Shown one piece after another: positions 1-15,090 of a stretch of 15,090 bases of DNA (its first letter is position 1; each line of letters starts with the position of its first letter). The translations under genes and the position numbers were made by a program. The stretch comes from a virus: IMG/VR virus record IMGVR_UViG_3300025289_000020. One strand, 5' to 3'. Under the pieces are notes generated by a model. It saw nothing but the letters and a program-made list of their open reading frames with translations, ran no database searches and had not been told where the DNA came from.

Positions 1-94
1 CGCCAGCTTCACCGGCACCCTCACCTCCGCCATGGGCATCGACATCCCCGCCCCGCAGATCGTCGGCGGCACACCCACCGTCACCACCATGTAC
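1..94. repeat. Terminal overlap, identical to 14997..15090 (circular closure or terminal redundancy)
   Basis: Base-by-base comparison: cgccagcttcaccggc...caccaccatgtac occurs at both window ends, 94/94 identical. Confidence 0.95.
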
Positions 95-394
95 GGCCTC
101 CGCGTCAACGACCAGGGCCATTCCAGCATCGGCACCGTCTACGGCGTCTACATCGCCAACATCACCGCCGGCACGACCCGCCGCCTGCTGGAGGTCCTCG
201 GGCTCACCGGCCCCAACCTCCGCGTGGAGGCCGGCGACCCGACATCGCCCGGCGCCAGCAAGGGACGCTCGCAGGTGCTCCTCGACTTCAACGAGAACGG
301 CACCGTCACCCTGCGCCGCGTCGAGTGGATCGACAGCGGGGCAGCCGGCGGCGCCGGCATCCCCGCCAACGCCAAGCTACTCATCGCCGTCTAG
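2..394 (+). CDS. Tail spike/fibre protein, C-terminal part (continuation of 14110..15090 across the junction)
   Basis: The frame is open from base 2 (ASFTGTLTSAMGIDIP...) and matches the last residues of the open-ended ORF at the window end. Stop TAG at 392-394. Strong C-ending third positions. Joined length 1281 nt = 426 aa. Confidence 0.8.
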   Translation, partial: ASFTGTLTSAMGIDIPAPQIVGGTPTVTTMYGLRVNDQGHSSIGTVYGVYIANITAGTTRRLLEVLGLTGPNLRVEAGDPTSPGASKGRSQVLLDFNENGTVTLRRVEWIDSGAAGGAGIPANAKLLIAV

Positions 395-403
395 CCATGC
401 TGT

Positions 404-431
404 CCACTGCCCACTATCCACTGTCCACTGC
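404..431 (+). repeat. Four tandem heptamers: CCACTGC CCACTAT CCACTGT CCACTGC
   Basis: Read directly in the 56-nt gap between the fibre stop (394) and the next start (451). In another register it reads T(G/A)(T/C)CCAC x4. Confidence 0.9.
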
Positions 432-450
432 GACCGAAGGGAGCTGACCC

Positions 451-735
451 ATGCCACGCATCACCCTCACCGTCGACGGCAAGGCCTACGACATCCCGGA
501 CGCCGCCGTCCCCGCCATCCAGGTCCACGTCGACCGCACCAACGCCGCCGCCAACACCGCCCTCTCCCTCGGCGAGTGGCTGGCCCTCCACCTGCAGGAG
601 CTCGCCATCGCCGACGCCCTGGCCGCCGCCGTCGCCCAGCTCCAGCAGCAGCAGCAGGACGACGCCAACGCCGCCCTGGAAGCCGCGATCAAGGCCGCCC
701 GCGACGAGCTGCTCGCGTCGCTGACAACGCCGTGA
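451..735 (+). CDS. Hypothetical protein, 94 aa, Ala/Gln-rich helical C-terminus
   Basis: ATG preceded by GAAGGGAG (436-443). High GC3. Its stop overlaps the next candidate start (GTGA). Confidence 0.75.
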   Translation: MPRITLTVDGKAYDIPDAAVPAIQVHVDRTNAAANTALSLGEWLALHLQELAIADALAAAVAQLQQQQQDDANAALEAAIKAARDELLASLTTP

Positions 736-950
736 TCGCCCTCTACGCCGTCGGCGCAGCCTACGCCGTCGCCATCGTCCACGCGGCGGGCCGCCTCTGC
801 CTCCTTGCCTGCGCCCACGGGCTACGCAACGCGCTACCCGCCCTCGAACACGCACACCCGCAACCCCCGTCAGAATGGCCCCTCAGCCTGCCTCACGCGC
901 TTTCAGCGCACCCGCCTGCGCCGGTGCTACAATGGCCGCGTGATAACTGA
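732..950 (+). CDS. Small membrane protein (holin or SAR-like segment candidate), 72 aa
   Basis: GTG overlaps the upstream stop (GTGA). The N-terminus VIALYAVGAAYAVAIVHAAGRLCLLACA is a Gly/Ala-rich hydrophobic helix. GC3 is good for the first ~30 codons, then declines. Lies directly upstream of the endolysin. Confidence 0.4.
   Translation: MIALYAVGAAYAVAIVHAAGRLCLLACAHGLRNALPALEHAHPQPPSEWPLSLPHALSAHPPAPVLQWPRDN
925..933 (+). promoter_or_regulatory. Extended -10-like element TGCTACAAT
   Basis: TGnTAnAAT ends 6 nt before GTG 940, which has no Shine-Dalgarno. This is compatible with a leaderless endolysin transcript. Confidence 0.35.
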
Positions 951-1668
951 CCTCACCGCCCGCTTTCCGATCCCCCGCGCCTGGCCCCGCCAGACCAGCC
1001 GCCCCGCCGACATCGACACCAACGCCATCCACCACACCGCCACCCTCTACCTCTCGCCCACCGCCGCCGAAGCCGACGAGATCAACCAGATCGCCGTCAT
1101 TCACCAGTACCACATCGGCCGCGGCTTCGCTGGCTTCGGCTACCACGGCATCGCCTTTCCCAGCAGTCGCGCCTACATCGTCACGCCCTTCGACCAGTGG
1201 GGCGCCAACGTCGCCGAAGAGAACGACCACGTCCACGGCTACGCCGCCGCCGGCACCTACACCACCACGCCACCCCCGCCGGCCCTCCACACCGGACTCG
1301 CCCGCCTCGTCGCCGCCGGACGCCGCTACCTCGGCCGCACCGTCCCCGACAGACCGCACCGCCATTGGGGCGGCACCACCTGCCCGGGCGAACCGTGGGC
1401 GACCTGGGTGCCCGCCCTCACCATCCTCGCATCCAAGGAGGACGACACCATGACCCCACAACAGCAGAAAGAGCTCGCCGCCGCCACCGCCGCCGTCACC
1501 GCCCTCCGCAGGCGCGCCGCCTACGACGCCCACATCGGCGTCCTCCTGCAGTACGCCGGCCAGCTCACCGCCCTCGGCTCCACCGACCCCCGCCCCGTCC
1601 TCGCCGCCCTCAAGAAGCGCATCGCCACCTTCGACGCCGCCCTCGCCTCTGGAGCCGCCCATGCCTAA
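940..1668 (+). CDS. Endolysin, N-acetylmuramoyl-L-alanine amidase (Amidase_2/PGRP type)
   Basis: Motifs AIHHTAT, GFAGFGYHGIAF and HRHWGGTTCPGEPW match the zinc-ligand and signature layout of T7-lysozyme-type amidases. The start is uncertain: GTG 940 gives the usual ~30 aa before the HH motif, but the frame is open and shows good GC3 from TTG 805. Confidence 0.85.
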   Translation: MITDLTARFPIPRAWPRQTSRPADIDTNAIHHTATLYLSPTAAEADEINQIAVIHQYHIGRGFAGFGYHGIAFPSSRAYIVTPFDQWGANVAEENDHVHGYAAAGTYTTTPPPPALHTGLARLVAAGRRYLGRTVPDRPHRHWGGTTCPGEPWATWVPALTILASKEDDTMTPQQQKELAAATAAVTALRRRAAYDAHIGVLLQYAGQLTALGSTDPRPVLAALKKRIATFDAALASGAAHA

Positions 1669-1831
1669 GACCCGCACCGCCGCCGGCGTCAAGGTCACCG
1701 TCACCGCGCCCTTGCTGCCCGTCGCTCTCGCCACCGCCCAGCCCGAGGCCGCCGCCCTCTGCATCATCGCCGCCGCCCTCCAGGCCATGGAAGACCAGGA
1801 GAAGGCCCACGGCACGCCCGCCGAAACGTAA
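1661..1831 (+). CDS. Hypothetical small protein, 56 aa, with a central hydrophobic stretch
   Basis: ATG overlaps the endolysin stop (ATGCCTAA). Very high C-ending GC3. Segment APLLPVALATAQPEAAALCIIAAALQA. Stop TAA at 1829-1831. Confidence 0.6.
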   Translation: MPKTRTAAGVKVTVTAPLLPVALATAQPEAAALCIIAAALQAMEDQEKAHGTPAET

Positions 1832-2162
1832 GCCCGGCGCGCAGCCCGGCAACACCAACGCCCTCACGACCGGCCTGTACGCCCGCTCGCTCGACCGCGC
1901 CCGCCTGCACCAGTACGAGATCGCCCTCGGCATGAGCCCCACCGACCTCACCCGCGAAATCGCCCTCCTCCGCGAGCGCGTAGACCTCCTGCTCCAGGCC
2001 GCCCCCGAACGCCTGGAGCTCCTCATCGCGGCCCTTGGGCGGTTGACACGCATGGTCGCCACGCACTACCATCTCAGCGCCGCCGACACCGACCGGCTCA
2101 CCCAGGCCACACGCAACGTCCTCGACGAGATCGAGGCCACCCTCGGAAGGGGGCACGACTGA
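1830..2162 (+). CDS. GNxNA..GLY-motif protein (paralogue of the TerS-like 5902..6459). 5' boundary undefined: no start codon
   Basis: High GC3 begins exactly at 1830 in this frame (KPGAQPGNTNALTTGLYARSL...). There is no ATG/GTG/TTG in frame upstream, and the first ATG is at 1932. Stop TGA at 2160-2162. Confidence 0.55.
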   Translation, partial: KPGAQPGNTNALTTGLYARSLDRARLHQYEIALGMSPTDLTREIALLRERVDLLLQAAPERLELLIAALGRLTRMVATHYHLSAADTDRLTQATRNVLDEIEATLGRGHD

Positions 2163-2341
2163 TGGACACCGTCTTCACCGACTGCGGCAGCGCCTCCGTC
2201 GCCGTCCAAACCGCCGCAATCGCCCTCACCGCCACCGCCCTGGCCGTCTCCGCCTTCTGCCTCGCCTACATCGCCAAGACCGTCCGCAGCTGGGCAGCCT
2301 GGACCGGGTCCGCTCGAACGCCCCCCGCCGACGACGCCTAG
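2162..2341 (+). CDS. Small membrane protein, 59 aa (holin-like)
   Basis: ATG overlaps the upstream TGA (TGATG). One clear TM helix, VAVQTAAIALTATALAVSAFCLAYIA. High GC3. Confidence 0.65.
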   Translation: MDTVFTDCGSASVAVQTAAIALTATALAVSAFCLAYIAKTVRSWAAWTGSARTPPADDA

Positions 2342-2357
2342 CCCCGGAGGTCACACC

Positions 2358-2441
2358 ATGCGCAACCTGCTCACGATCGCCGCCATCTACGGCATCGGCG
2401 TCGCCACCGGCATCACCTACTCCCTGCTCGCCCTCACGTAG
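2358..2441 (+). CDS. 27-aa hydrophobic peptide
   Basis: GGAGG (2346-2350) lies 7 nt before the ATG. Sequence MRNLLTIAAIYGIGVATGITYSLLALT is essentially a single TM helix. Confidence 0.5.
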   Translation: MRNLLTIAAIYGIGVATGITYSLLALT

Positions 2442-3110
2442 GCTTTGGCGCACCAGCCGGACCCGGCGACGCCCATCGCTCGCCCCACCGCGTAGCGGCC
2501 CAGCACGACGCCATACCGGCCCCCGCCCGGCAGCGCCGACGCCTGTGCCCGCAGGGCCGGGCACGTCGCTTCGCTCCTCACTGGGCGGCGGCTCGCCGGG
2601 CCACCACCTTTCTTCACCCCCGCCTGCCGGCCACGTCGGGCGGCTCTTCGCGGGCAGGGCGCCCCACCCTCGCAGGCTCCCACCACCCCACACGCCCGCT
2701 CAGCCCGCCCTCCGTCGCCTTGCATGGCGGCCCCACGGCCACGGCTCCGCGCCACCCCCGCCGCTCAGGCGGCGACCCCTCCCGCTCCGCCGGCGCCGAC
2801 CCCACAGCGCCGGCAACGACCCGTAGCTACGGCAACCTGAATCGTTTTCCGAAAAAGAACCAAAGCGGCGCGCGAGGCGCGCGTAGCGGTAGCCGGCTTC
2901 GCCGGCACTGAGGACGGTTCACCGCTCCGGCTGGGGGGCCGTGGCGGGGCTGGCCCCTTCCTGGCACGGCGTCGCCGGTCGGCAACCCTACGGGTCCTCC
3001 GCTGCGCTACGGCCCGCCCTACGGGCGGGTGCCTTCCCGCCTCCTTCCGTGCCTGGGGGGCCTTGGCCCCGCTCACTTGGCCCCCCGCCGGGGGGCGGTG
3101 AACAGGGCTG
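2442..3110. other. Large non-coding region between the end of the late/lysis operon and the first early gene
   Basis: No frame on either strand gives a credible protein (only Pro/Arg/Gly-rich translations). The + strand is C-rich at 2442-2830 and G-rich at 2867-3110, with an AT-rich core in between. Many GC hairpins. Confidence 0.6.
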
Positions 3111-3124
3111 GAAAGGGGCGTGTC

Positions 3125-3307
3125 GTGGCCGGTGCATATCGCGCGTGTCCTGGGTGTGGCCGTCGCCGCTCGTCCTGGCTGGCCTGCGGTCACTGCGGCT
3201 GGCGCTGGCCTCTCTGTTCGTGTGGTTTGCCGTTGGGGCCGTCCGGCTGCGCCCGGTCCGGCTGTGGCGGTCAGTCGGCGCTGTTCGCGCCGGAGAAAGG
3301 GGAGTAG
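3125..3307 (+). CDS. Zinc-ribbon mini-protein A, 60 aa (CPGCG..x8..CGHCG, ends PEKGE)
   Basis: GTG lies 6 nt after GGAAAGGGG. Shares Cys spacing and the C-terminal PEKG(E/D) with the 3549..3704 product. Its last codons form the SD of the next gene. GC3 does not discriminate it from the overlapping frame of ORF 2941..3552. Confidence 0.55.
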   Translation: MAGAYRACPGCGRRRSSWLACGHCGWRWPLCSCGLPLGPSGCARSGCGGQSALFAPEKGE

Positions 3308-3309
3308 TC

Positions 3310-3552
3310 GTGTTCTCGGAGATCATCGTCGCAACCTGCCGTGAGTGCGGAGAGCACACACACCTGCGGCTGTGGCCGGAGCGGGCGGTCTGCCTGTCCT
3401 GCGGCGGGAGCTGGTGCCGGTGCTGCAACCCGCCGGTGACCCTTCCGCCCGCCGGGGCGGCCCCCTGCCCGGCGCAAGACTTCAAGCGCGCCCTGCAGGC
3501 CACCTACGGCGGGCGTATAGAAGAGCACGCGCGCTACTGGGTGGCGTCGTGA
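3310..3552 (+). CDS. Cys-rich zinc-ribbon protein, 80 aa
   Basis: GTG lies 5 nt after GGAGAAAGGGGAG. Contains CRECG...CLSCG plus CRCC. Its stop overlaps the next start (GTGA). Confidence 0.7.
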   Translation: MFSEIIVATCRECGEHTHLRLWPERAVCLSCGGSWCRCCNPPVTLPPAGAAPCPAQDFKRALQATYGGRIEEHARYWVAS

Positions 3553-3704
3553 TTGGCCTGTGGTCCTGCCCACGCTGCGGCTCGCTCTACACCGCCGTAC
3601 CGCAGCAAGATAGAAGCCCGCGCGCACCGTCGGTTTGCGGACACTGCACCGTCACCCTCCGGCCCCTGGCAACCGTCCCGGAGAAAGGGGACCAGCGGCC
3701 ATGA
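3549..3704 (+). CDS. Zinc-ribbon mini-protein B, 51 aa (CPRCG...CGHC, ends PEKGDQRP)
   Basis: GTGA overlap with the upstream gene. Paralogous layout to 3125..3307. Its C-terminal codons again spell GGAGAAAGGGGA, the SD for the next gene. Confidence 0.65.
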   Translation: MIGLWSCPRCGSLYTAVPQQDRSPRAPSVCGHCTVTLRPLATVPEKGDQRP

Positions 3705-3979: not shown

Positions 3980-3981
3980 CC

Positions 3982-4392: not shown

Positions 4393-4408
4393 ACTCCAGA
4401 CAACCACC

Positions 4409-4447: not shown

Positions 4448-4473
4448 ACCAGCACCGACAGAGGAGAACGACC

Positions 4474-5094
4474 ATGAAGAGCACAGCCACCATCGCCAGC
4501 GTCAAGACCTCGCACCAGGCCGCCAACTACAACGGCCCCGCCACCACCACCCTGAGCATCACCCTAGACATCCCCCTACCCACGCCGACCGCGCCGCTCA
4601 CAATCACCGACTGGGCGCGCCGGCTGCCGTACAACGAGACGCAGGAGATCCGGAAGGCCCAGGAGCAACGCGCGGCCAGGGCCGCCGGGCGGAAGCCCCT
4701 GAACCTCACCAAGAAGCAGAAGCAGGCCCAGGAAGACGCGCACGACGACGGCGAGGAGTGCGCCTGGACGCTCACCTGCGAGAACTGCAACCCCGTCACC
4801 GGCGCGGGAGAGGGCGACGACCTCCCCTGCCTGGAGCACAGAGACCCCGACTGCCTCACCTGCGAGGAGGCGGGCGCCCCCTTCCTGGACGGGGCCACCC
4901 AGGCCAACCTCCAGGCCCGCTACGAGCTCTACGTCACGGACGTTCAGACCATCAACCGCCAGGCCGTCCAGGCGGCGCAGGAGGCGGCCCTCTTCCTGCT
5001 GCTCATCAAGCAGGCCGTCCAGGTGACGGTCGAACCCCTGCAGGGAGCAATGTCCGACCTGCTCCTCCTGGAAGGAGGCGAGCCCGCCGGCTAA
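4474..5094 (+). CDS. Hypothetical protein, 206 aa, with a central Cys cluster
   Basis: GAGGAG lies 7 nt before the ATG. High GC3. Contains CENC..x15..C..x7..CLTC. Lys/Gln-rich linker and helical C-terminus. Confidence 0.85.
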   Translation: MKSTATIASVKTSHQAANYNGPATTTLSITLDIPLPTPTAPLTITDWARRLPYNETQEIRKAQEQRAARAAGRKPLNLTKKQKQAQEDAHDDGEECAWTLTCENCNPVTGAGEGDDLPCLEHRDPDCLTCEEAGAPFLDGATQANLQARYELYVTDVQTINRQAVQAAQEAALFLLLIKQAVQVTVEPLQGAMSDLLLLEGGEPAG

Positions 5095-5124
5095 ACGCTC
5101 ACCCGCTTAGACCTATTGACAGTC

Positions 5125-5160
5125 GCACCGCCCTGGCGCTATCGTCGGGGCGGTGCTTTT
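5125..5160 (+). terminator. Intrinsic terminator: 9-bp GC stem (GCACCGCCC / GGGCGGTGC) followed by TTTT
   Basis: Sits 30 nt after the 5094 stop. It is the only stem plus T-tract I found in the window and closes the early module. Confidence 0.7.
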
Positions 5161-5291
5161 GCGAGGCCAGCGCGGGCGGCCCGCCTGCCACCAACGGCAG
5201 CCAGGGCCGCCCGCGCCGGGCCAACAGCAGGGGCACCGAGAGGAGACGGCCATTGCAGAGCACCACCGCAGAGGCCAGAGCCACCGGCCCA

Positions 5292-5300
5292 TGCTATAAT
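5292..5300 (+). promoter_or_regulatory. Extended -10 element TGCTATAAT
   Basis: Perfect TGnTATAAT in a ~70% GC genome, located in a non-coding gap. No good -35. Confidence 0.45.
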
Positions 5301-5365
5301 CGCGGCCAGCACCAACCCCAGGGAGAACAGGGCAGCCGGGCAGGTTCGCACTATACATGTTCGCA

Positions 5366-5394
5366 TCGACGGCTGCCCCCGCTCGGCGTAGAAT
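5366..5394 (+). promoter_or_regulatory. Promoter-like TCGACG - 17 nt - TAGAAT
   Basis: The spacing and hexamers fit a sigma70/SigA-type promoter. The -10 ends 9 nt before the coding-like segment that opens at 5404. Confidence 0.45.
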
Positions 5395-5403
5395 CGGCCC
5401 CAA

Positions 5404-5626
5404 TTGTACGCCCCCGACCGGCTCCAACTCCAGCTACTCCGCCAGCTCGCCCAGACCGCCGGATACACCGGCCCCGGCCTGATCTGCCTCGACTGCCCAC
5501 GCCCCCAACACCTGCCCCCCTTCCTCCCCTTCTTCCTCCCAATCCACGTCCGGGAGCACCTGGAACGCTGGCCCACCCACGCCCTGCGCTGGTGGTGCTG
5601 GACGTGCTGCGCGTTTGATTGTACCC
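5404..5626 (+). CDS. Coding-like zinc-ribbon segment (CLDC..x32..CWTCC) with a TTG start and no in-frame stop
   Basis: High C-ending GC3 from 5404 to about 5612 in this frame, after which GC3 collapses. The frame stays open to 6459. The next real gene (ATG 5627) is in the +1 frame. Confidence 0.3.
5610..5626 (-). repeat. 17-bp motif copy A (minus orientation): reverse complement GGGTACAATCAAACGCG
   Basis: 16/17 identical to copy B at 6075..6091 in inverted orientation. Abuts ATG 5627. Confidence 0.85.
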
Positions 5627-5905
5627 ATGCCCAACGACTCGATTCAGCCCACGTTCAACGAATCCGAGGCCATCTCCAACGACGCCGCCCTGCAGCAGCT
5701 CCTCAAGTGGTACCCCGGCCAGGAGGCCCAGATCATCGCCGCCTACCGCCGCCGGCACCCACACGAAGGCTGCAACTGCCCCTGGCAGAACCGGAAGGCG
5801 GGCCGCTGCTGCACCCTGGACCGCATCAACCCGCCCCCCCAGGCCAGCCGCCGAAGCAGAAGCCCAAGCCGCGCAGGCCAGTACAGGGAGCAGATAAACC
5901 GGTGA
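5627..5905 (+). CDS. Hypothetical protein, 92 aa, with CNC...CC cysteines and a basic tail
   Basis: ATG start with high GC3. Its stop overlaps the next start (GTGA). No SD; motif copy A occupies the upstream 17 nt. Confidence 0.7.
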   Translation: MPNDSIQPTFNESEAISNDAALQQLLKWYPGQEAQIIAAYRRRHPHEGCNCPWQNRKAGRCCTLDRINPPPQASRRSRSPSRAGQYREQINR

Positions 5906-6459
5906 GCCCCCGGGGAGGGCGCCGCCCCGGCGCAGGCGCGCCACGGGGTAACAAGAACCGCCTCCTGCACGGCCTCTACTCCGGCGACCCGGAGACCCGC
6001 CGCCTCTCCCGCGCCCTCGCCGCCCTGCCCGCCGACGTCCGGCAGCAGCTCCTCCCCTACGTCAAGGAGGGCCTGGGTACAATCAAACGCCGCCTCGCCT
6101 GGGTGGCCCCGCACCTGCGCCACCAGGAGCCCACCGGCAACCTCGTCCACTTCCCTACCGTCACAACAACAACACCGCCGGTTCAATCAAACGCCCACCT
6201 GGCCCCGCTGGTCCTGCAGCTCACCGCCGCCGGCCTGTTCGGCGCCGGTCCCTTCGTCCACGACCACGCCCCAGCCGCCGGCGTCATCTGCGAGGTCCTC
6301 CAGTACATCCACGACCACCCGGAGGGGATCGCCAACCCCGGCGCCCTCATCCGATACCTCGTCCACCAGGAACTCGCAGAGCCAGCCGCGGGCGGCGGAC
6401 TCCGCTGCCCCTACTGCCGGTGGACAGACCACCGGCAAAGAGAGGAGAGCACCTCATGA
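5902..6459 (+). CDS. Terminase small subunit-like protein, 185 aa (N-terminal GAPRGNKNRLLHGLYS motif)
   Basis: GTG start. The GxPxGNxNxxxHGxY motif recurs in YjcR/PBSX-type small terminases (from memory). Size and position upstream of TerL fit. C-terminal CPYC. Confidence 0.6.
   Translation: MSPRGGRRPGAGAPRGNKNRLLHGLYSGDPETRRLSRALAALPADVRQQLLPYVKEGLGTIKRRLAWVAPHLRHQEPTGNLVHFPTVTTTTPPVQSNAHLAPLVLQLTAAGLFGAGPFVHDHAPAAGVICEVLQYIHDHPEGIANPGALIRYLVHQELAEPAAGGGLRCPYCRWTDHRQREESTS
6075..6091 (+). repeat. 17-bp motif copy B: GGGTACAATCAAACGCC
   Basis: Inside the TerS-like gene, encoded with atypical codons ggt aca atc aaa. Confidence 0.85.
6179..6195 (+). repeat. 17-bp motif copy C: CGGTTCAATCAAACGCC
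   Basis: 15/17 identical to copy B and 104 bp downstream in direct orientation. Encoded with atypical codons gtt caa tca. Confidence 0.8.
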
Positions 6460-6748: not shown

Positions 6749-6948
6749 AACCCCACTACAGCGCCCGCCTGGAACGCTGCACCCAGTCCACCGACAGCAA
6801 GACCGGCGGGCCCCTCCCCCTGCGCATCCAGATCGCCATCCCCTCATACGCCACCGGCCTGGCCATCCTGCGCGACCTGTCCGCAGGCCGCGTCCCTATC
6901 ACCATCGTCATCGAGGCCGTCCAGGCCCACCTACCGGAACCCGAATGA
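6745..6948 (+). CDS. Hypothetical protein, 67 aa
   Basis: ATGA overlaps at both ends, with good GC3. Function unknown. Confidence 0.7.
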   Translation: MKPHYSARLERCTQSTDSKTGGPLPLRIQIAIPSYATGLAILRDLSAGRVPITIVIEAVQAHLPEPE

Positions 6949-8309
6949 CCATCCAGCTCCGCCCCTACCAGGCCGAGCCGGCGCGGGCCATCATCCGCGA
7001 CGCCCGCCTCGGCGGCGGGCACACATTCACCGTCCTGATGAGCCGGCAGGCCGGCAAGAACGAGCTCAGCGCCTGGATCGAGAAGGTCCTCCTCGTCGCC
7101 AACATGGCCAACCCCCACGCGATCGGCGTCAAGACCGCACCCACCCTGACGCCGCAGCTCCGCAACAGCATCCGCCGCCTGCGGGCCCACCTGGACGCCG
7201 CCGGCTTCCGCAACGCCTACGCCCTGGAGGAGGGCCACCTCCTCACCCTGGGCGCCGCCGCCTGGAACTTCCTCAGCGCCGCCCCCGGCGCCTCCGTCCT
7301 GGGCGCCACCGCCGGCCTGCTGCTGGAGGCCGACGAGGCCCAGGATATCGACCCCGACCGCTTCACAAAGGACTTCCGGCCGATGGCGGCCAGCACCGCC
7401 GCCACGACCGTCCTCTACGGCACACCCTGGAGCGAGGACGACCTGCTGCTGGCCACCGTCGCCGAGAACAAGGCGCGAGAGCGCAAGGACGGCCTCCAGC
7501 GGCACTTCGAATACCCCTGGCAGGAGGTGGCGAAGCACGTCCCCGCCTACGCCCGCTACGTGGAGGCTGAGCGCATCCGGCTCGGCCCCACGCACCCCCT
7601 GTTCACCAGCCAGTACGACCTCACGCCACTGCCGGGCACGGGCCGCCTGCTGTCGCCCGCCCAGCTCACCAACCTCCAGGGCAGCCACGACCGCCGCCAC
7701 TTCGCCAAGAAGGGCGAGACCCACGCCGCCGGCCTGGACGTCGCCGGCGAGGAAACCGACCCGCTCAGCCCCCGCGACCGCGACCACAACGTCCTGTGGA
7801 TCAGCCGCGTCACACCCGGCCCCAAGCACTCCCTCCCACTGTCCGAGACCGTCGCCATCTACGCCTGGCAGGGCACCGGCCACGACGCCCTCTACGCGCA
7901 CCTCCACCGCCTGCTACGCGACGTCTGGAACATCGCCCACGTCGCCGTGGACGCCACCGGCGCCGGCGAGGGCATGGCGATCCTCCTGGCCCGCTCCCTC
8001 GGCGAGCACCGCGTCACCGCCTACAAGTTCACCGAGCAGAGCAAGTCCCACCTGGGCTACCAGCTCCAGGCCGCAGCGAACACCGGCGCCCTCAAGCTCT
8101 GGAAGGCCGACGGCGGCGCGGAGCACAACGAGGCCCAGCGCCAACTTCGGCTCTGCCGCGCCGAGTACCGGCCAAACCGCACGGTCCGCTGGCACGTCGA
8201 CCCCAGCCAAGGGCACGACGACTACGTCGCCGCCGCCGCCCTCGCGGTCGAGGCCGCGACCCAGGCGCAGCCCCGCCGCGCCCGTGGTAGAATCCCCACA
8301 GCGCCATGA
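6945..8309 (+). CDS. terL: Terminase large subunit, 454 aa
   Basis: Walker A-like SRQAGKNE, Walker B-like LLLEADEAQD, and C-terminal acidic nuclease-type motifs GLDVAGEE, VAVDATGAGEG and GHDDYVAAA. Located directly upstream of the portal gene. Confidence 0.9.
   Translation: MTIQLRPYQAEPARAIIRDARLGGGHTFTVLMSRQAGKNELSAWIEKVLLVANMANPHAIGVKTAPTLTPQLRNSIRRLRAHLDAAGFRNAYALEEGHLLTLGAAAWNFLSAAPGASVLGATAGLLLEADEAQDIDPDRFTKDFRPMAASTAATTVLYGTPWSEDDLLLATVAENKARERKDGLQRHFEYPWQEVAKHVPAYARYVEAERIRLGPTHPLFTSQYDLTPLPGTGRLLSPAQLTNLQGSHDRRHFAKKGETHAAGLDVAGEETDPLSPRDRDHNVLWISRVTPGPKHSLPLSETVAIYAWQGTGHDALYAHLHRLLRDVWNIAHVAVDATGAGEGMAILLARSLGEHRVTAYKFTEQSKSHLGYQLQAAANTGALKLWKADGGAEHNEAQRQLRLCRAEYRPNRTVRWHVDPSQGHDDYVAAAALAVEAATQAQPRRARGRIPTAP
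8285..8293 (+). promoter_or_regulatory. Extended -10-like TGGTAGAAT inside the last codons of terL
   Basis: The last 10 terL codons use atypical cgt ggt aga aca cca, and the element ends 12 nt before portal ATG 8306, which has no SD. Confidence 0.3.
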
Positions 8310-9655
8310 CCGACCAGACGCCACTCCCCCACCTCCTCAAGAACCGGGACCGCGACCGCCTCCAGCAGTACACCAGCGCCCTGGCCTTCTACGAGGGCAA
8401 GCAGTGGCCGGCGCCAGAGGCGCGCACCCGCAGCGTCCGCCGCCTCACGCTGAACTACGCCAAGGCCATCGTCAACAAGACCGCCACGTTCACCATGAAG
8501 GGCGCCGCCGTCAACGCCAGCCCCCGCTCCGACAGCGACGAGGACATCGCCGCCGCCGCCGCGGTCGAGCACTACCTGGCGGAGCTGGCCCACAACAACG
8601 GCCTGGCCCGCCTGGACCTGGTGACCGAGATCGACGCCGCCGTCCTCGGCGACGCCGCCTACAAGGTCACCTGGGACACCGCAGAGGAGCGCGTCGCCAT
8701 CACCGCCCCCGACGTGCGCGGCCTCTTCCCCTGGCCGCACCCGACCGACCCCACGCGGTTTACCCGCGTCGCCCATCGCTACACCCTCCCCCGCGAGGAC
8801 GTCATCGCCCTGTGGGGCATCGCCCCACGCGACAAGACCGCCGAAATCATCGAGGACTGGACCGACGCCACCCTGGACATCTGGATCGACGGCGGCCCCA
8901 CGCCCACCCTCACCCAGGTCAACCCCTACGCCCTCATCCCCCTCGTCATCTACCCCAACAACCAGGTCCCCAAACGGTGGTGGGGCGAATCCGACGTTCT
9001 CCCCCTCCAGGAGATCGCACAGGAGCTCAACCGCCAGATGACCCGCGTCAGCAACATCCTGGAGCTCTCCGGCTTCCCGATCGCCGTCCTGGAGAACGTG
9101 GACGAGGCCACCGACATCGCCGCCGTCCCCGGCGCCGTCTGGGAGCTGCCCAGGGAGGCCAAGGCCTACCTGCTGGACCTCCTGCAGGGCGGCGGCGTCA
9201 AGCTCCACCTGGACTACACCGACCACCTCCTGCGCGCCCTCCACGACATCAGCGAGACCCCCCGGACCGCTTTCGGCAACGTGGACCGCGAGCTCTCCGG
9301 CGTCGCCCTGCAGGTCGAGCTGCAGCCCCTCCTCCAGAAGGTCGACCGGAAGCGCACCATTCGCGGCGACGCCTACACCCAGCGCGCCGCTCTCGCCCTG
9401 CGCCTCTCCGACCTCTTCACCGGCACCGCCTATACCGACTCCATCGCCGGCCTCACGGCGTCCTGGGACCCGCCCGGCCCCGCAGACAGGACGCGGGACA
9501 TCGAAGACGAGACCGCGCTCGTCACCAACGGCCTGTCTAGCCGCCGCAGCAGCATGGGGCGCTTGCAGACCCCCGACCCAGACAAAGAGCTGGCGACCTG
9601 GCAGGAGGAGACCCGCGCTATCGAGGCCTTGACATCAGCGCCTAAACGCGGGTAA
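8306..9655 (+). CDS. Portal protein, 449 aa
   Basis: Immediately follows terL (ATGA overlap) and has typical size. N-terminal YEGKQW...LTLNYAKAIVNK resembles SPP1 gp6-type portals (from memory). Confidence 0.85.
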   Translation: MTDQTPLPHLLKNRDRDRLQQYTSALAFYEGKQWPAPEARTRSVRRLTLNYAKAIVNKTATFTMKGAAVNASPRSDSDEDIAAAAAVEHYLAELAHNNGLARLDLVTEIDAAVLGDAAYKVTWDTAEERVAITAPDVRGLFPWPHPTDPTRFTRVAHRYTLPREDVIALWGIAPRDKTAEIIEDWTDATLDIWIDGGPTPTLTQVNPYALIPLVIYPNNQVPKRWWGESDVLPLQEIAQELNRQMTRVSNILELSGFPIAVLENVDEATDIAAVPGAVWELPREAKAYLLDLLQGGGVKLHLDYTDHLLRALHDISETPRTAFGNVDRELSGVALQVELQPLLQKVDRKRTIRGDAYTQRAALALRLSDLFTGTAYTDSIAGLTASWDPPGPADRTRDIEDETALVTNGLSSRRSSMGRLQTPDPDKELATWQEETRAIEALTSAPKRG

Positions 9656-9658: not shown

Positions 9659-9667
9659 CCTCACGAA

Positions 9668-10090
9668 ATGCCAGACGCTAACGGCAACCCCACCCCCGAA
9701 GAGCAGGCGGCCGCAGAACAAGCCACCGCCGCCCAGCCGCAGGCCGACACCCAAGCCCTCACCGAACAGCTCACCCAAGCCCAGGCCCGCAACCTGGAGC
9801 TGGAGACCGCCGCCATCCGCGCCGCCAACCCCGACCTCCCGGACGCGGCCTTCGCCGGCGACGACCTCGCGGCCATCCAGGCCAGCGTCGCCACCGCCAG
9901 GGCCGTTGCCGACCACGTCCGCGAGCAAACCGTTGCCAACGGCGCCGCCACGCCCGCCGCCGCCGCCGCCGCCGTCGCCGCCGCTGCAGCCGCGACCCCC
10001 ACAGGCGCCGGCGCACAGCGAACGCCCCCCGCACCCGAGGGGCTGAAGGGCATCGACCGCATCAAGTTCGGGCTCGCCCAGAGGAGCTAA
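9668..10090 (+). CDS. Scaffolding protein candidate, 140 aa
   Basis: Lies between the portal and capsid genes. Ala/Gln/Glu-rich helical sequence, low complexity. Confidence 0.65.
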   Translation: MPDANGNPTPEEQAAAEQATAAQPQADTQALTEQLTQAQARNLELETAAIRAANPDLPDAAFAGDDLAAIQASVATARAVADHVREQTVANGAATPAAAAAAVAAAAAATPTGAGAQRTPPAPEGLKGIDRIKFGLAQRS

Positions 10091-10093
10091 CCA

Positions 10094-11059: not shown

Positions 11060-11061
11060 CC

Positions 11062-11250
11062 ATGGCGGGCATCTGGTGCCCCCGCTGCCAGACAAAGGTC
11101 CGCCTGGAACAGGACGACCAGAGCTGCAGCAACTGCGGCCGCAAACTCGTCATCGCGGCCCCCACACCCCCACCCCCGCCCCCACGCGGGAAACGCGCCC
11201 CACGCGCCAGGAAACCCACCAGCCCGCCCAGGCCAAAGCCCGCCGCCTAA
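11062..11250 (+). CDS. Zinc-ribbon protein, 62 aa, with a Pro/Arg/Lys-rich tail
   Basis: CPRC..x12..CSNCG followed by PPPPPPRGKRAPRARKPTSPPRPKPAA. The ATG lies 2 nt after the capsid stop. Confidence 0.7.
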   Translation: MAGIWCPRCQTKVRLEQDDQSCSNCGRKLVIAAPTPPPPPPRGKRAPRARKPTSPPRPKPAA

Positions 11251-11264
11251 AGGAGCGCCGCTAG

Positions 11265-11885
11265 GTGCCGACCGCGCTCGCCACCATCAGGGGCCGCCTC
11301 CAGACCGTCCTTGACGACGCCGCCGCCGCCGTCTGGACCACCGGCGAGCTCGACCAGCACATCCAGGACGCCCTCCGCGACCTCTCGCACCGCATCCCCC
11401 GCGAGCGCACCACCACTATCGCCACCACCAGCGGCAGCCGCGACGTGTCCCTGGCGACCCTCACCGAGCGCGTCCGCATCGTCGCCGTCGAGTGGCCCAC
11501 CGGCAGCGACCCCAAGAACTTCGTCGACTTCTCCGAGTGGGCCGACGTCCTGCGCATCGACAGCCTCGGCATCCCCGACGGCACCGACTGCATCATCTAC
11601 TGGCAGAGCCTCCACAGCATCAACGGCACCAAGACCCTGCCCGAGGACTACGACGACGCCCTCGTTCACGCCGCCGCCGCCCGTGCCTGCGACCAGCAGG
11701 CCGCCGACGCCTCCAACGCCCTGAACACCGGCGGCCCCCCGGCGACCCGCGACTGGCGCACCCTGGCCGCCCACTTCCGCAACCGCTACGAGGAGCGCGT
11801 CGCACCCCGTCGCGGCATCAAGCGCCGCCGCCTCTACGCCCCCGCCGAGCCCACGCCCACCCAGAACACCGACCCAGGGCCATAG
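11265..11885 (+). CDS. Structural protein, 206 aa (head-tail adaptor / tubular protein A-like by position)
   Basis: AAGGAG lies 9 nt before the GTG, with high GC3. Function inferred only from T7-like gene order and size. Confidence 0.55.
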   Translation: MPTALATIRGRLQTVLDDAAAAVWTTGELDQHIQDALRDLSHRIPRERTTTIATTSGSRDVSLATLTERVRIVAVEWPTGSDPKNFVDFSEWADVLRIDSLGIPDGTDCIIYWQSLHSINGTKTLPEDYDDALVHAAAARACDQQAADASNALNTGGPPATRDWRTLAAHFRNRYEERVAPRRGIKRRRLYAPAEPTPTQNTDPGP

Positions 11886-11888
11886 CCG

Positions 11889-13922
11889 GTGCGGTCCCTC
11901 TCCGGCACCCTGGCCGCCGCCCAGAAGGCCCGCGTCCGCCGCCCCCACCTGCACGTCACCGTCGCCGATCGCTTCGCCGGCATCCGCCGCCTGCGCTGGA
12001 CGCAGTGGTACGCCGGCGCCGAGGCGGACAACGGCCACGCCGCGGTCGTCGCCGACGACGGCTCACTCACCCGCGCCCGCTTCGAAAGCACCACCCTCTA
12101 CCGCTCCCGCGTCGAAACCCCCACCAGCGGCGACACGTACTCCTCCTGGACCACCTGGACCCCCGCCGTCACCCCGAAGGCCAACTTAATAGCCTTCGCC
12201 AAGGCCGGCTCCACACTGTGGGCGTTCATCGTCAACAACGCCACCCAGACCCAGGTCTACAAGGCCACCAGCGCCGACGACGGCGCAACCTGGAGCGCCT
12301 TCGCGCTCGCCTTCACCAACGACCGCGACGTCACCGCACTCGCCGCCGCCGGCAAGACCGACGGCAACGTCGTCGTCACCGTCATCCCCGGCCCCGTCGG
12401 CACCGGCGTCAAGGCCTGGCGCTGGAACGGCAGCGCCTGGACCGGCTACGACGGCCCCTCCAGCGCCCTCTCCTACTCCGGCGTCGCCGTCACCTACGGC
12501 GGCGACTGGAACGTCGTCACCACCGACGAGGACACACTCGCCGCCATCCCCGTCCAGGAGCTCCGGCAGTACATCTTCGGCGACGGCTTCTCCCAGGCCG
12601 CCAACACCTGGAGCGCCGGCGTCATCCTCCAGACCGCCATAAGCGCCGCCGGCCTCCTCTTCGCCGCCCCCTACGCCGGACGCCCCGACGTCTACCGCGC
12701 GACCTTCCGCCAACGCTTCACCGGAACCGTCGCCTACGACCGCACCCACCACACCAACCAGCCAGCCACCGCCGCCTTCGTCGACGCCCTATGGCGCGAG
12801 CCCGTCCCCCTGAACATCGTCGCCCCCTTCGGCGCCGCCATCTCCTACGACGCCACCCAGGTCTTCCTCACCACCGCCCGCTACGTCTACCAGGCGCCCG
12901 TGGCCGACGGCATCACCGACATCACCGCCCGCGTCGTCACCGCCGACCTCCACGAGACGGACACCCCCAAGCTGTCCGAGCTCATCCTGGACAACAGCGA
13001 CGGCGCCTACACCACGCCGGGCAGCGGCGCCGCCGCCGCCCTGACCAAAGGCGCCGAGGTCCGCATCAGCCCCGGCTACGTCACCACCGCCGGCGACGAG
13101 TACAGCGCCAACGCCGCCTACTACGTCGAGGCCATCCGCCACGTCTACGAAGGCGGCCGCGCGCTCGTCAAGCTCACCCTCGGCAGCCCCTGGACCGCCA
13201 TGGCCCGCCACCGCTTCCCCCGCGCCGTCGAGTTCGCCGCCGCCGCCAAAAACATCTTCCAGCAGCTCCAGCACATCGCCGCTCGCGTCGGCTACGAGCT
13301 GAGCGCCAGCGGCTCCAGCTCCGCCAGCGCCAACCTCTACCCACCGCTCGCGCTGCCGCCGGGCACCTCCGCCCTGACCGCCTTCCGCCGCACCCTCGAC
13401 CGCGTCCCCGACCGCCTCTACGCCCGCGGCGAGTTCCTTTTCCTAAACGAACCGCTCACATCCGACACCAACGACGCCACCTACAAACGCCCATTCGACC
13501 CGGCATTCGGCCAGGAGATCGCCGCCGCCGAGTACGGCGACGCCCTCAAGGACGCCAACCACGTCCAGGTCTTCGCCGACGCCGACGGCGCCGTCGTCGC
13601 CGAGGACGTCGACTACACCGAGACCGCCCTTCTCTACTCCGCCCCCCGCCAGCGCGCCGACCCCTACATCACCGCCGGCGCCGACGCCACGGCCAGGGCC
13701 GCCGCCGAGCAGCGCAGGCAGACCGTCCACACCACGCGCGGCGACCAGATCACCGCCCCCGTCCACTGCGGCCTGGAGGTCAACGACGTGATCGCTCTCA
13801 CCGACGCCAGGCACGGCCTCAGCGGCGCCAAGCGCCGCGTCCTCAGCCTCCGCACCCTCTACCGGCGGGGGCCCGGCGGCAAGGCCAGATACGACCACGT
13901 CATCGAACTGGGAGCGCCGTGA
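11889..13922 (+). CDS. Tail nozzle/hub-like protein, 677 aa, with an N-terminal BNR/Asp-box region
   Basis: GTG start and strong GC3 throughout. Canonical Asp-box SADDGATW at 12270-12293, with degenerate copies (SGDTYSSW, NGSAWTGY). Function inferred from size and synteny. Confidence 0.6.
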   Translation: MRSLSGTLAAAQKARVRRPHLHVTVADRFAGIRRLRWTQWYAGAEADNGHAAVVADDGSLTRARFESTTLYRSRVETPTSGDTYSSWTTWTPAVTPKANLIAFAKAGSTLWAFIVNNATQTQVYKATSADDGATWSAFALAFTNDRDVTALAAAGKTDGNVVVTVIPGPVGTGVKAWRWNGSAWTGYDGPSSALSYSGVAVTYGGDWNVVTTDEDTLAAIPVQELRQYIFGDGFSQAANTWSAGVILQTAISAAGLLFAAPYAGRPDVYRATFRQRFTGTVAYDRTHHTNQPATAAFVDALWREPVPLNIVAPFGAAISYDATQVFLTTARYVYQAPVADGITDITARVVTADLHETDTPKLSELILDNSDGAYTTPGSGAAAALTKGAEVRISPGYVTTAGDEYSANAAYYVEAIRHVYEGGRALVKLTLGSPWTAMARHRFPRAVEFAAAAKNIFQQLQHIAARVGYELSASGSSSASANLYPPLALPPGTSALTAFRRTLDRVPDRLYARGEFLFLNEPLTSDTNDATYKRPFDPAFGQEIAAAEYGDALKDANHVQVFADADGAVVAEDVDYTETALLYSAPRQRADPYITAGADATARAAAEQRRQTVHTTRGDQITAPVHCGLEVNDVIALTDARHGLSGAKRRVLSLRTLYRRGPGGKARYDHVIELGAP

Positions 13923-13987
13923 AAAACGACCCTCTGAGAGCCACGAGAAGCCCCCCCAACCAACCGCCACCACACCAGGAGACCCCC

Positions 13988-14113
13988 GTGTGTGAAGACT
14001 GCGGAACGCTCGCCACCACCGTCTACCCCCACTGCGACGCCAACCTCTGCCCCGACTGCATCAACGACCACATCGAGCACGCACACGCCCAATACCAAGA
14101 CGAGGAACCATGA
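13988..14113 (+). CDS. Zinc-ribbon mini-protein, 41 aa
   Basis: AGGAG lies 7 nt before the GTG. Contains CEDCG..x10..C..x4..CPDC. Its stop overlaps the spike start (ATGA). Confidence 0.65.
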   Translation: MCEDCGTLATTVYPHCDANLCPDCINDHIEHAHAQYQDEEP

Positions 14114-15090
14114 CCCAGCGCTTCGCCGACGACCCCCAGAGCATCCCCGGCGGCCGCATCATCGCCAAGGCCATCGTCAAGACCTACACCGCCGGCACCC
14201 ACAAGGCCGACGTGCAGCTCGTCGGCTCCCACCCCACCGTCCTGTCCGCCATCCGGGTGGCGACGGACATCCCCGCCGCCGACGTCGTGGCCGGCCGGCA
14301 ATGCACCGTCCTCTTCCTGGACCCCGCCAACCAGGACGACGCCGTGATCCTCACCATCCAGGGCGCCCTCCCGTCGGGCGGCGGCGGCGGCGTCACCTCC
14401 CACCCCGCCCTGACCAGCCTCGACTACGCCTCCGCCGGTCACACCGGCTTCGAGACCCCCACCGGCGCCCAGGCGAAGGTCGACACACACGCCGCCGCCG
14501 CCGACCCGCACACCGTCTACGGCGCCCTCGCCCAGGCCGAGACCTGGGCTGCCCTGCAGACCTTCGGCGCCGGCCTCCGCCTCTCCTCCGGCCAGGCCAT
14601 CCAGAACAGCGCCGGCGTCGACCGCATCCGCCTGGCCATCACCAGCCAGCACATCACCCTCATCGGCGACGCCAACGTCGACGGCAACCTCAAGGTCGGC
14701 ACCGGCCCCTTCGGCAACTTCGCCGCCTACAACACCAACCCGTCCACCGGCATCGTGAACATCGGCGGCAACACCGTCTTTACCCCCGCCACCGCCAGCG
14801 TCACCGGCCTCCAGTGCCAGGTCGTCGCCGCCCCGACCAGCGGAGCCCCCAACGTCATCGCCGTCGCCGGCTTCGCCAAGATCGGCGGCGGCAGCGGCGC
14901 CACCATCAGCAACCTCATCGGCCTCCAGTACTACGCCCAGGCCGGCGGCGCCCTCCCCCACACCAACGTTAAGTGCATCGAGGCCAAGGTTCAGGTCGCC
15001 AGCTTCACCGGCACCCTCACCTCCGCCATGGGCATCGACATCCCCGCCCCGCAGATCGTCGGCGGCACACCCACCGTCACCACCATGTAC
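14110..15090 (+). CDS. Tail spike/fibre protein, N-terminal 327 codons (open at the window end, continues at 2..394)
   Basis: ATG 14110 with no stop before the window end, so it is absent from the ORF track. The N-terminus GGRIIAKAIVKTYTAGTHKADVQLVG...CTVLFLDPANQDDAVILTIQG resembles gpV/gp5/Gp138-type OB-fold spike domains (from memory). The rest is Gly/Ala/Thr-rich and repetitive. Confidence 0.8.
   Translation, partial: MTQRFADDPQSIPGGRIIAKAIVKTYTAGTHKADVQLVGSHPTVLSAIRVATDIPAADVVAGRQCTVLFLDPANQDDAVILTIQGALPSGGGGGVTSHPALTSLDYASAGHTGFETPTGAQAKVDTHAAAADPHTVYGALAQAETWAALQTFGAGLRLSSGQAIQNSAGVDRIRLAITSQHITLIGDANVDGNLKVGTGPFGNFAAYNTNPSTGIVNIGGNTVFTPATASVTGLQCQVVAAPTSGAPNVIAVAGFAKIGGGSGATISNLIGLQYYAQAGGALPHTNVKCIEAKVQVASFTGTLTSAMGIDIPAPQIVGGTPTVTTMY
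14997..15090. repeat. Second copy of the 94-bp terminal overlap
   Basis: Identical to 1..94. It lies inside the spike/fibre reading frame. Confidence 0.95.

Follow-up and report, generated by a model that had tools for sequence, protein, structure and literature searches.

The window, a stretch of 15,090 nucleotides (nt) that makes up the IMG/VR record IMGVR_UViG_3300025289_000020 of an uncultured virus, is a complete, minimal genome of a tailed phage that is probably short-tailed. Our preferred reading, to which we give a probability of about 0.6, is that this phage belongs to a lineage with genomes of 15-16 kb, that host enzymes would copy its circle in one direction, and that a protein encoded at 5404-6459 would mark the origin. 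A close rival for the last point is that the 15-bp sites in and around this gene mark the start of packaging.

The first 94 positions of the window are identical to 14997-15090, giving a unit genome of 14,996 bp with a G+C content of 71%. The end-start junction lies in frame inside a 426-amino-acid (aa) open reading frame (ORF; 14110 to 394) with a strong coding score and a normal codon pattern, so the repeat is an assembly overlap and not a physical end. Independently assembled Logan contigs of four public soil or sediment runs, one of which may be the source sample, joined position 14996 back to 1; they start at about 14,520-14,854, cross 14,996 and reach 138...686, with a shorter side of 138-255 nt. 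Contigs of relatives spanned the adjacencies of nozzle, fibre and lysis genes (L006, L025, L135), of lysis genes, non-coding region 1 (NCR1) and early genes (L135, L140, L141), and of early genes and large terminase (L002, L136, L139). Two relatives are self-closing as well, L014 with a 127-nt overlap and L143 with a 55-nt overlap, so that the lineage has three closed genomes of 14,942 (L014), 14,996 and 15,850 bp (L143), and contigs of several further relatives measure 14.1-16.3 kb. Strain-level variants were detected in at least 13 soil and sediment runs of 2016, each with half or more of the sampled words. With identical ends, four bridging runs and two further closed relatives, the window sequence is a complete, closed 15-kb genome, as the sequence-only reading had claimed; closure speaks to the completeness of the sequence and not to the virion ends, be they permuted, direct terminal repeats or cos. 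All window genes lie on the plus strand, and 92% of the genome is coding according to a codon-usage log-odds scan and frame plots of third-position G+C (GC3). A tRNA scan of the window found none, Rfam gave no match in it at E<=1, and the complete genome had no megablast match among 50,697 phage records. Isolates yielded only distant matches to the large terminase and no close cultured relative.

Large terminase (TerL), portal and HK97-fold major capsid protein (MCP) occur in one module, which places the phage in Caudoviricetes (Table 1). In addition to the matches given in the table, TerL showed a nuclease-domain signal (Terminase_6C, 0.004) that was below the cutoff of this model. The short-tail plan of SU10 and T7 is indicated by the SU10_adaptor match; the nozzle-like protein had no family match and only a weak BNR/sialidase-like signal, and PDB sequence searches with the single sequence and with a 10-sequence profile gave noise only. 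No ORF of the window resembled a tape measure, tail tube, sheath or protease in Pfam and PHROGs, which fits a short-tailed phage with a scaffold. The N-terminal ~80 aa of the fibre are conserved in the family (tblastn aligned only residues ~13-91 in relatives) and the rest varies; its counterpart in L140 carries PF26696 PTL_trimer, and the window fibre had no Pfam match. The scaffold, nozzle, fibre and membrane-protein labels were given by position, size and co-conservation only, and the two small membrane proteins may, by position, be holin- or spanin-like. TerL, portal, nozzle-like protein and fibre are the only ORFs longer than 351 aa. The profile and tblastn matches agree with the earlier description of a tailed-phage morphogenesis set accompanied by lysis genes.

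The 27 called products were scanned against Pfam and PHROGs, and the early products also against NCBIfam. No polymerase, primase, helicase, Rep/initiator, recombinase/integrase, repressor or RNA polymerase was found in the called ORFs, and the early region gave only sub-threshold matches to zinc-ribbon models. Ten alternative-frame or minus-strand ORFs of 2200-6950 matched no replication, transcription or integration family in Pfam, and no ORF showed polymerase, primase or HUH motifs by profile search. The integrases of six relatives had zero tblastn matches in the window even at E<=10, and PF00589 was absent from the scanned ORFs. The two largest early proteins, the 351-aa frame at 5404-6459 and a 206-aa protein, had no PDB sequence match. 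AlphaFold2 models of the two, built from 16 and 7 sequences, reached a predicted local distance difference test (pLDDT) value of 54 and 52, respectively. VIA-align of these poor models against 48,161 chains gave a best Z of 5.0 for the 351-aa frame and 4.4 for the 206-aa protein, all to generic helical chains, and an Atlas shape search stayed below a template modelling (TM) score of 0.25; such models neither back nor exclude any fold. An ESM Atlas feature search with the 206-aa protein and a 185-aa protein (the C-terminal part of the 351-aa frame) gave no usable match. Among the non-structural ORFs scanned from the closed genomes L014 and L143 no replication family was found, the only exceptions to an empty result being the L014 integrase (detected by tblastn) and a DNA methylase of L143. 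These profile, PDB-sequence and structure-based searches bear out the earlier statement that no polymerase, primase, helicase, Rep, integrase or repressor motif is present. Since no copying or transcribing enzyme of its own was detectable, we infer that host enzymes would replicate and transcribe the phage, as far as homology searches can show, and the proposed dependence on the host stands.

The plus strand of the window has a GC skew of about -0.25 and an AT skew of about +0.2. Because all window genes run in one direction, this skew alone could be a codon effect. In two relatives with genes on both strands, however, the skew kept one sign along the whole contig, negative in L011 and positive in L017. 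We found that the third-position G/C skew of orthologous genes flips with orientation: for MCP it is -0.58 in the window and +0.23 in L017, for the nozzle gene -0.66 in the window and +0.39 in L011, and integrases of relatives have values of -0.50 to -0.55 when encoded on one strand and of +0.20 to +0.42 when encoded on the opposite one. In parallel, the bias between A and T at third positions changes sign. Assembly fold-back was rejected as the cause of the flip, since coding strands would then have stayed C-rich. In the closed genomes L143 and L014 the skew is negative along the entire circle, and the relatives on Chloroflexota chromosomes do not exceed an absolute skew of 0.13. As orthologs change sign with orientation and chromosomal copies are unskewed, the bias in the free phage goes with the DNA strand and not with the orientation of the genes. 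The G+T-rich minus strand of the window thus appears to bear the signature of longer single-strandedness over the entire circle. Strand-wide skew is what one-directional replication would predict, whether by rolling circle or by unidirectional theta with delayed lagging-strand synthesis, and the fork would move toward decreasing window coordinates. A strand asymmetry that is independent of gene direction is a rare and direct sequence clue to the mode of copying. Compared with the window, the adaptor-nozzle-fibre-TerS module is inverted in L011 (15,420 bp) and the TerL-portal-integrase module in L017 (13,195 bp); both contigs carry an integrase, and since the inversions enough time has passed for the codon usage to re-equilibrate.

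The sequence-only reading had allowed no protein longer than 206 aa in the early region, which was wrong, since 5404-6459 is an open 351-aa frame in all nine relatives that cover it. At its N-terminus (5404-5626) the frame encodes a zinc ribbon of the form CxxC...CxxCC. A Pro/Arg-rich insert of 93 codons comes next, and then a C-terminal part (5902-6459) in which the stretch RGGRRPGAGAPRGNKN..HG.YS is invariant; the helical domain of this part (pLDDT ~80) holds an invariant His, His, Cys-x2-Cys cluster. The region 5404-5626 is coding, with 10 of 20 changes synonymous in its frame versus 1-4 of ~20 in the other frames, and synonymous changes are enriched in the 351-aa frame in both parts flanking the insert. 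Inside the insert, purifying selection acts not on this frame but on that of a 92-aa gene read in the +1 frame, which has the highest synonymous share. Both insert and 92-aa gene are missing from L143 and L144. Two proteins of more distant relatives, P0014 and P0015 (one of them in the closed genome L143), are natural 260-aa fusions in which the zinc ribbon is joined straight to the 5902-6459 part, so the ancestral gene encoded one protein. We did not accept the open 351-aa frame as proof of a single product in the window: the overlapping gene has a high GC3, which suppresses stop codons in the 351-aa frame, and no purifying selection on this frame is seen within the insert. The product may be a 351-aa protein, a frameshifted one, or separate proteins of 75 and 185 aa.

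The 5404-6459 protein had no match in Pfam, PHROGs, NCBIfam, PDB sequences or fold searches. An exhaustive profile search returned 428 proteins, of which ~44 match along the full length and the others share the N-terminal motif only. PHROG small-terminase families were matched by 24 of 94 remote homologs of the RGG..GNxN motif, and Pfam gave no family for these 94. The 15-bp sequence GCGTTTGATTG(T/A)ACC occurs three times within the gene, compared with 0.01 copies expected, and a degenerate copy lies at ~5401-5412. The layout of one plus and two minus copies is repeated in L139, L002, L009, L143 and L144; in the last two the plus copy is upstream of the gene and not inside it. The reading frame differs between the two minus copies, which are both read through rare A/T-ending codons; this indicates that the constraint at the sites is on DNA and not on protein. 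Iteron-type initiators (lambda O, plasmid Rep_3) have their repeated sites in or next to the initiator gene, close to a readily melted stretch; no clear A/T-rich unwinding element was seen beside the sites of the window. These features make the 5404-6459 product a candidate origin-binding or pac-binding protein. The earlier suggestion that a small ORF might encode a novel initiator remains a proposal, but it can now be tied to this specific candidate.

The MCP search returned 54 IMG/VR loci and 353 relatives in the one-genome-per-species GTDB set. Relatives at 65-99% identity form a family of ~15-16-kb genomes with two gene orders, and the loci L001-L030 and L135-L144 share orthologous TerL, portal, MCP, adaptor, nozzle, fibre N-terminus and small terminase (TerS) with the window. 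Larger (38-44 kb) low-GC relatives were considered for ORF layout only. An orthologous tyrosine integrase was found in ten loci (L011, L013, L014, L016, L017, L021, L024, L026, L030 and L055), six of them called by Pfam PF00589 (E 1e-20 to 1e-25) and the others by tblastn. The 5404-6459 gene was found in the window and 13-15 further loci, and none carries both it and the integrase. L016 has the gene order of the window, and its integrase is flanked by the early genes on one side and by the homolog of 6456-6650 on the other; in the window this place is taken by the 206-aa gene, the leader and 5404-6459. Because the two genes are mutually exclusive and occupy the same place, the lack of an integrase reflects the exchange of a module in a single clade, the lineage being temperate otherwise. 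The window itself has no integrase gene and so lacks the make-up of a temperate integrative phage, yet this lack is specific to its clade and does not extend to the architecture as a whole. The integrase-bearing genomes (L014, L011, L016, L024, L026/L030; TerL 45-56% and MCP 65-77% identical to the window) resemble the window in size (14.9-16 kb), in having no recognisable replication genes, in the same strand-wide skew, and in orthologous portal, adaptor, nozzle, fibre N-terminus and TerS. They differ in their tyrosine integrase and, in some, in inverted modules or a rotated gene order, whereas the window clade has in the integrase's stead a 533-nt leader and 5404-6459 with its 15-bp sites. 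The swap between integrase and module is a natural experiment on what lytic growth and lysogeny require.

The C-terminal part of the 5404-6459 frame had been called TerS-like before, but it shares only the N-terminal TerS-type motif, and 1830-2162 is the likelier ortholog. This gene is the only non-structural one conserved across the family, in nearly all members. In the distant relatives L069, L084, L094, L098, L103 and L132 its homolog abuts TerL on the upstream side (for example 171->559 in L069, 3683->4091 in L084 and 2611->2945 in L094), and in L109 and L127 it is ~0.55 kb upstream; owing to this adjacency we take 1830-2162 to be the probable TerS ortholog. The protein fits TerS in motif (GNxNAxKHGxYS) and size (~110-140 aa), with the adjacency to TerL seen in the distant relatives and not in the window. 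It had no direct match in Pfam or PHROGs, and the TerS label came via remote homologs of the shared motif only. In eight clade genomes no ATG, GTG or TTG precedes its N-terminal motif for 44-125 codons upstream, and more distant homologs start normally. The frame of 1830 begins where the 56-aa ORF at 1661-1831 ends (ACG TAA G). Judged from these reading frames, 1830-2162 is likely expressed by a shift from the 1661-1831 frame or from a non-standard start.

In the preferred reading, ~10.5 kb (6945 round to 2441) would form one rightward late operon running from TerL through the TerS ortholog and the membrane proteins, and ~4 kb would hold small, fast-changing early genes behind host-type promoters. 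Host enzymes would copy the circle one way and leave the window minus strand single-stranded for longer, while the phage would supply only the parts that recognize DNA, namely conserved non-coding blocks and the 5404-6459 protein. This protein, with its zinc ribbon and TerS-type motif, would mark the origin by binding the 15-bp sites, three or four in number, that lie within and near the gene encoding it. Concatemers would be cut and packaged by TerS (1830-2162) and TerL, presumably in a headful or otherwise terminase-cut manner, and the 5404-6459 module would stand in for the tyrosine integrase of the temperate cousins.

Several points weigh against this reading. The skew shows mutation asymmetry and not mechanism, the L024 integrase breaks the skew rule, and a 0.6-kb stretch at 2801-3400, overlapping the least conserved early genes, has reversed skew. 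No role can be assigned to some 20 small ORFs, a protein without recognisable homology may still have a function, and both AlphaFold2 models are poor. The motif of 5404-6459 is of the small-terminase type, and pac sites lie inside terS in P22 and SPP1, so the 15-bp sites may serve packaging. The integrase-bearing relatives, which have no 5404-6459 protein, must replicate lytically too, and the protein is therefore not a lineage-wide initiator.

The last two points equally favour an explanation that we regard as possible but doubtful, in which the phage has no replication protein at all. Copying would begin at a cis-acting origin, either the NCR1 core (2802-2935) or 5095-5403, primed by host RNA polymerase, Pol I or a PriA-type system in the way of ColE1 plasmids or of the single-strand origins of rolling-circle plasmids, and the 5404-6459 protein would be a packaging-specificity factor or late-gene regulator with the sites as pac or operator. 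The NCR1 core of ~130 nt is conserved in 11 relatives. It has an inverted repeat, AACGAC...GTCGTT, at 2815-2846, the A/T tract TTTTCCGAAAAAG and three hairpins, among them those of 2868-2883 and 2892-2906; compensatory changes were found in it, with seven pairs altered on both sides and still paired. The first hairpin with its T-run reads as a minus-strand terminator, and NCR1 may act as terminator, priming signal or origin. The core was not found at <=3 mismatches in L143, L144, L009 or the integrase-bearing genomes, and no Rfam family matched it, both of which speak against an origin there. The second stretch, 5095-5403, belongs to the 533-nt leader (5095-5626), which is 75-79% identical in 11 relatives, including L002 and L007 with other upstream genes. 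Its first promoter (TTGACA-18-TATCGT, 5116-5145) overlaps an operator-like inverted repeat (5126-5155), which again suits a cis-acting origin with a regulatory protein. Unidirectional skew is also what ColE1-type and rolling-circle modes predict. The separate TerS ortholog at 1830-2162, however, would make a second pac-recognition protein redundant.

That the 5404-6459 product is a new type of initiator, combining a zinc ribbon with a TerS-type motif, binding the 15-bp sites inside its gene and starting one-directional, rolling-circle-like copying with host enzymes only and no phage HUH nickase, polymerase, primase or helicase, seems to us unlikely. If it were true, swapping the integrase for this module would turn a temperate 15-kb phage lytic or episomal.

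It is quite improbable that 5404-6459 is an episomal-maintenance module, with plasmid-like carriage in place of integration and a Rep-like initiator or copy-control factor acting on iterons. The strict exclusion of module and integrase at the same genome position, the repeated sites within the protein's own gene, and the promoter-rich leader with its operator-like repeat would all be expected of such a module; yet profile scans detected neither a partition gene nor a repressor or Rep family, a genome of 15 kb has little space for maintenance functions, and all sightings of the element are short metagenome contigs that are not linked to any host replicon.

Even less probable is a cryptic replication enzyme of unrecognised fold in the 206-aa (4474-5094), 136-aa (3982-4392) or 677-aa "nozzle" protein. 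Zinc ribbons are typical of primase DNA-binding domains, the models are too poor to exclude any fold, and the 677-aa protein has no family match. The 206-aa gene, however, has near-identical homologs only and is missing from the close relative L002, early genes differ between genomes with 89% identical TerL, the 677-aa gene always lies between adaptor and fibre and is conserved with both, and the profile searches for polymerase, primase and HUH motifs came back empty.

Hardly credible, finally, is a fragment, chimera, satellite or host-owned particle locus of the gene transfer agent type, as which the virion and lysis gene content and the scattered MCP-adaptor-nozzle sets of Chloroflexota chromosomes might be read, because the window is a free circle closed in four runs with two further closed relatives, has strain variants in at least 13 runs, its own TerL, TerS and lysis genes and variable early genes, and shows a strong strand skew that chromosomal copies lack.

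The host is probably a bacterium of the Chloroflexota, judging from where related sequences are found. Of the 353 MCP relatives in GTDB, the 80 listed are almost all Chloroflexota (Dehalococcoidia, Chloroflexia), with Binatia, Gemmatimonadales and Hyphomicrobiales bins as exceptions. The family member L057 is binned with Chloroflexi RBG_16_64_32, and a 79% identical homolog of 5902-6459 was deposited as Dehalococcoidia. This host call, drawn from distant capsid relatives and binned contigs, is a further weak point of the preferred reading. We know of no cultured phage of Chloroflexota. On the Chloroflexota chromosomes L058, L059, L062 and L085, MCP (36-44% identical to that of the window), adaptor and nozzle genes occur together without terminase or portal within 10 kb and without strand skew, whereas the window, a free and closed genome, also has genes for packaging and lysis as well as early genes. 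These chromosomal loci, in the phylum of the probable host, may be domesticated sets rather than prophages. The elements described in the Dehalococcoides IME1 preprint (10.64898/2026.09.15.751708) are of the filamentous type and unrelated.

The claim that the window is among the smallest tailed phages is true for its size, but precedents exist. Siphoviruses of 14.3-15.5 kb are represented by Rhodococcus phage RRH1 (14,270 bp) and Arthrobacter Cluster AN (~15.5 kb) (PMC5513430), and 109 actinophages are smaller than 20 kb (bioRxiv 10.1101/2022.02.05.479200). Like the window, RRH1 and Cluster AN are tailed double-stranded DNA phages with genomes of 14-16 kb, most of which is taken up by virion genes. 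They are siphoviruses that infect Actinobacteria and have a tape measure and a fused protease-capsid gene, whereas the window has an SU10-type adaptor, no tape measure, a separate 140-aa scaffold and 321-aa capsid, and no DNA match to any isolate. RRH1 and Cluster AN are also not known to have an obvious polymerase. The window is a minimal host-dependent tailed phage, and small phages of such a kind are already known. The phi29-like podoviruses (Salasmaviridae, Rountreeviridae, Guelinviridae) have been described as the smallest known tailed viruses, and the short-tailed phages of ~15 kb known from culture are phi29-like and have a protein-primed polymerase (PMC11476376). They share with the window the short tail, a genome below 20 kb and a very reduced gene set, but have linear DNA, a protein-primed family-B polymerase, a terminal protein and unit-length packaging. 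In the window, by contrast, neither the ORFs nor the alternative frames matched a polymerase family, a probable TerS accompanies TerL, which has a nuclease-domain signal, and the ends are a 94-nt direct overlap closed by four runs, with no terminal inverted repeat among the listed repeats.

In phage lambda, iterons lie inside the initiator gene O. The lambda O/ori region and the terS genes of P22 and SPP1 resemble the window in having repeated short sites inside the gene of a DNA-binding protein, putative in the window, between early and late genes; 5404-6459 showed no sequence or fold similarity to lambda O or solved TerS proteins, and has no helicase-loader partner gene. ColE1-type and rolling-circle plasmids also have no polymerase of their own, a one-directional mode that fits uniform skew, and a structured non-coding region, but no RNA I/RNA II pair, HUH Rep or single-strand origin was found in the window, so that the analogy is one of logic only. 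Tailed phages below ~16 kb define the smallest set of genes that a head-tail virus must have, and the lineage would be a second route to a minimal podovirus, in which terminase-based packaging is kept and every replication enzyme is dropped. Its value is tempered, since polymerase-less small phages are already known and the mechanism is a proposed one. Two features merit further study, the strand asymmetry and the zinc-ribbon/TerS-motif protein with its sites.

Table 1. Features of the window, in window coordinates.
Feature	Coordinates	Strand	Remarks
Left copy of 94-nt assembly overlap	1..94	.	Identical to 14997-15090
94-aa protein after fibre gene in relatives	451..735	+	15 loci
Endolysin, N-acetylmuramoyl-L-alanine amidase	805..1668	+	Amidase_2 4.8e-6, above cutoff; PHROG endolysin/amidase
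56-aa ORF	1661..1831	+	Stop abuts start-less frame of next gene
Probable small terminase (TerS) ortholog	1830..2162	+	N-terminal PGNxNAxxxGxY motif
Two small membrane proteins, 59 aa (2162-2341) and 27 aa (2358-2441)	2162..2441	+	Conserved in relatives
Non-coding region 1 (NCR1)	2442..3124	.	Coding signal absent from all frames
Five small early ORFs, mostly CxxC zinc ribbons	3125-3307, 3310-3552, 3549-3704, 3701-3979, 3982-4392	+	
206-aa protein, lineage-restricted ORFan	4474..5094	+	Beta-hairpin, Cys cluster, long helix
Promoter-rich part of non-coding region 2	5095..5403	+	
One open 351-aa frame	5404..6459	+	Open in 9/9 covering relatives
Three copies of the 15-bp site (span 5611..6194)	5611-5625 (+), 6076-6090 (-), 6180-6194 (-)		
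92-aa gene in +1 frame inside insert	5627..5905	+	Best coding score of the stretch; 13 loci
Three tiny ORFs before TerL: 64-aa coiled coil, 33-aa transmembrane, 67 aa	6456..6948	+	
Large terminase (TerL)	6945..8309	+	tblastn 1e-41 and 2e-26 to annotated phage terminases; PHROG TerL 1e-7
Portal, SPP1 type	8306..9655	+	Pfam SPP1_portal 2.1e-17; phrog_64 3e-26
Scaffolding protein (inferred)	9668..10090	+	Between portal and MCP; Ala/Gln-rich, 140 aa, family-conserved
Major capsid protein, HK97 fold family, 321 aa	10094..11059	+	phrog_212 (major head protein) 3e-48
62-aa zinc-ribbon protein after MCP	11062..11250	+	Zn_Ribbon_1 2e-4, below cutoff; 34 matches in relatives
Head-to-tail adaptor, SU10 type	11265..11885	+	PF24175 SU10_adaptor 5.1e-9, 37 bits vs cutoff 27
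Nozzle-like tail protein (inferred), 677 aa	11889..13922	+	Always between adaptor and fibre, co-conserved
64-aa Cys-rich protein	13919..14113	+	Between nozzle and fibre genes
Tail fibre/spike, 426 aa	14110..15090, across junction to 394	+	Coding score 418

Sigma70-like promoters of host type are conserved in six genomes, which matches the absence of a phage RNA polymerase. Besides the first promoter of the leader, further elements are an extended -10 sequence TGCTATAAT (TGnTATAAT) at 5292 and TAGAAT at 5389. Over the 5116-5155 promoter (TTGACA-18-TAnnGT), a 10-bp inverted repeat CACCGCCC...GGGCGGTG is followed by CTTT and conserved in the six genomes; from its position it looks like an operator or attenuator. 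The window has no minus-strand gene despite the terminator-like hairpin of NCR1, and integrase-bearing cousins do have one. After the fibre gene, at 400-427, four tandem heptamers (CTGTCCA-like, with DnaA-box-like cores) are unique among the nine genomes compared. They were rejected as DnaA boxes, being absent in L006, L135, L140, L025, L143, L024, L009 and L016 with cores that are not enriched, and because of this absence from eight relatives the array is no origin of the lineage.

The 206-aa protein had no Atlas neighbour, and its homologs among 5.8 billion proteins were found only at 76-82% identity. Its gene is absent from L002 and L007; as the TerL of L002 is 89% identical to that of the window, the gene behaves like an accessory cassette. 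Contigs of two or three runs seem to skip 4454-5092, which holds this gene, and one skips 3406-3981; the skipping contigs, with flanks of 26-30 nt on one side, are a weak hint at cassette variants in the population. The five small early ORFs were found in close relatives only and had no significant family match, and the last of them encodes a 136-aa double zinc-ribbon protein. The third-position G/C composition of the first four is nearly balanced (+0.09 to -0.18). The methylase of L143 is a 227-aa N6/N4 DNA methylase (7079-7762; PF01555, 5.8e-13) encoded among the small genes before TerL, with no counterpart in the window. The sequence CCGGAGAAAGGGGA occurs twice in the early region (3290-3303 and 3678-3691), where each copy encodes the C-terminus PEKG of a zinc-ribbon ORF and doubles as the ribosome-binding site of the next ORF.

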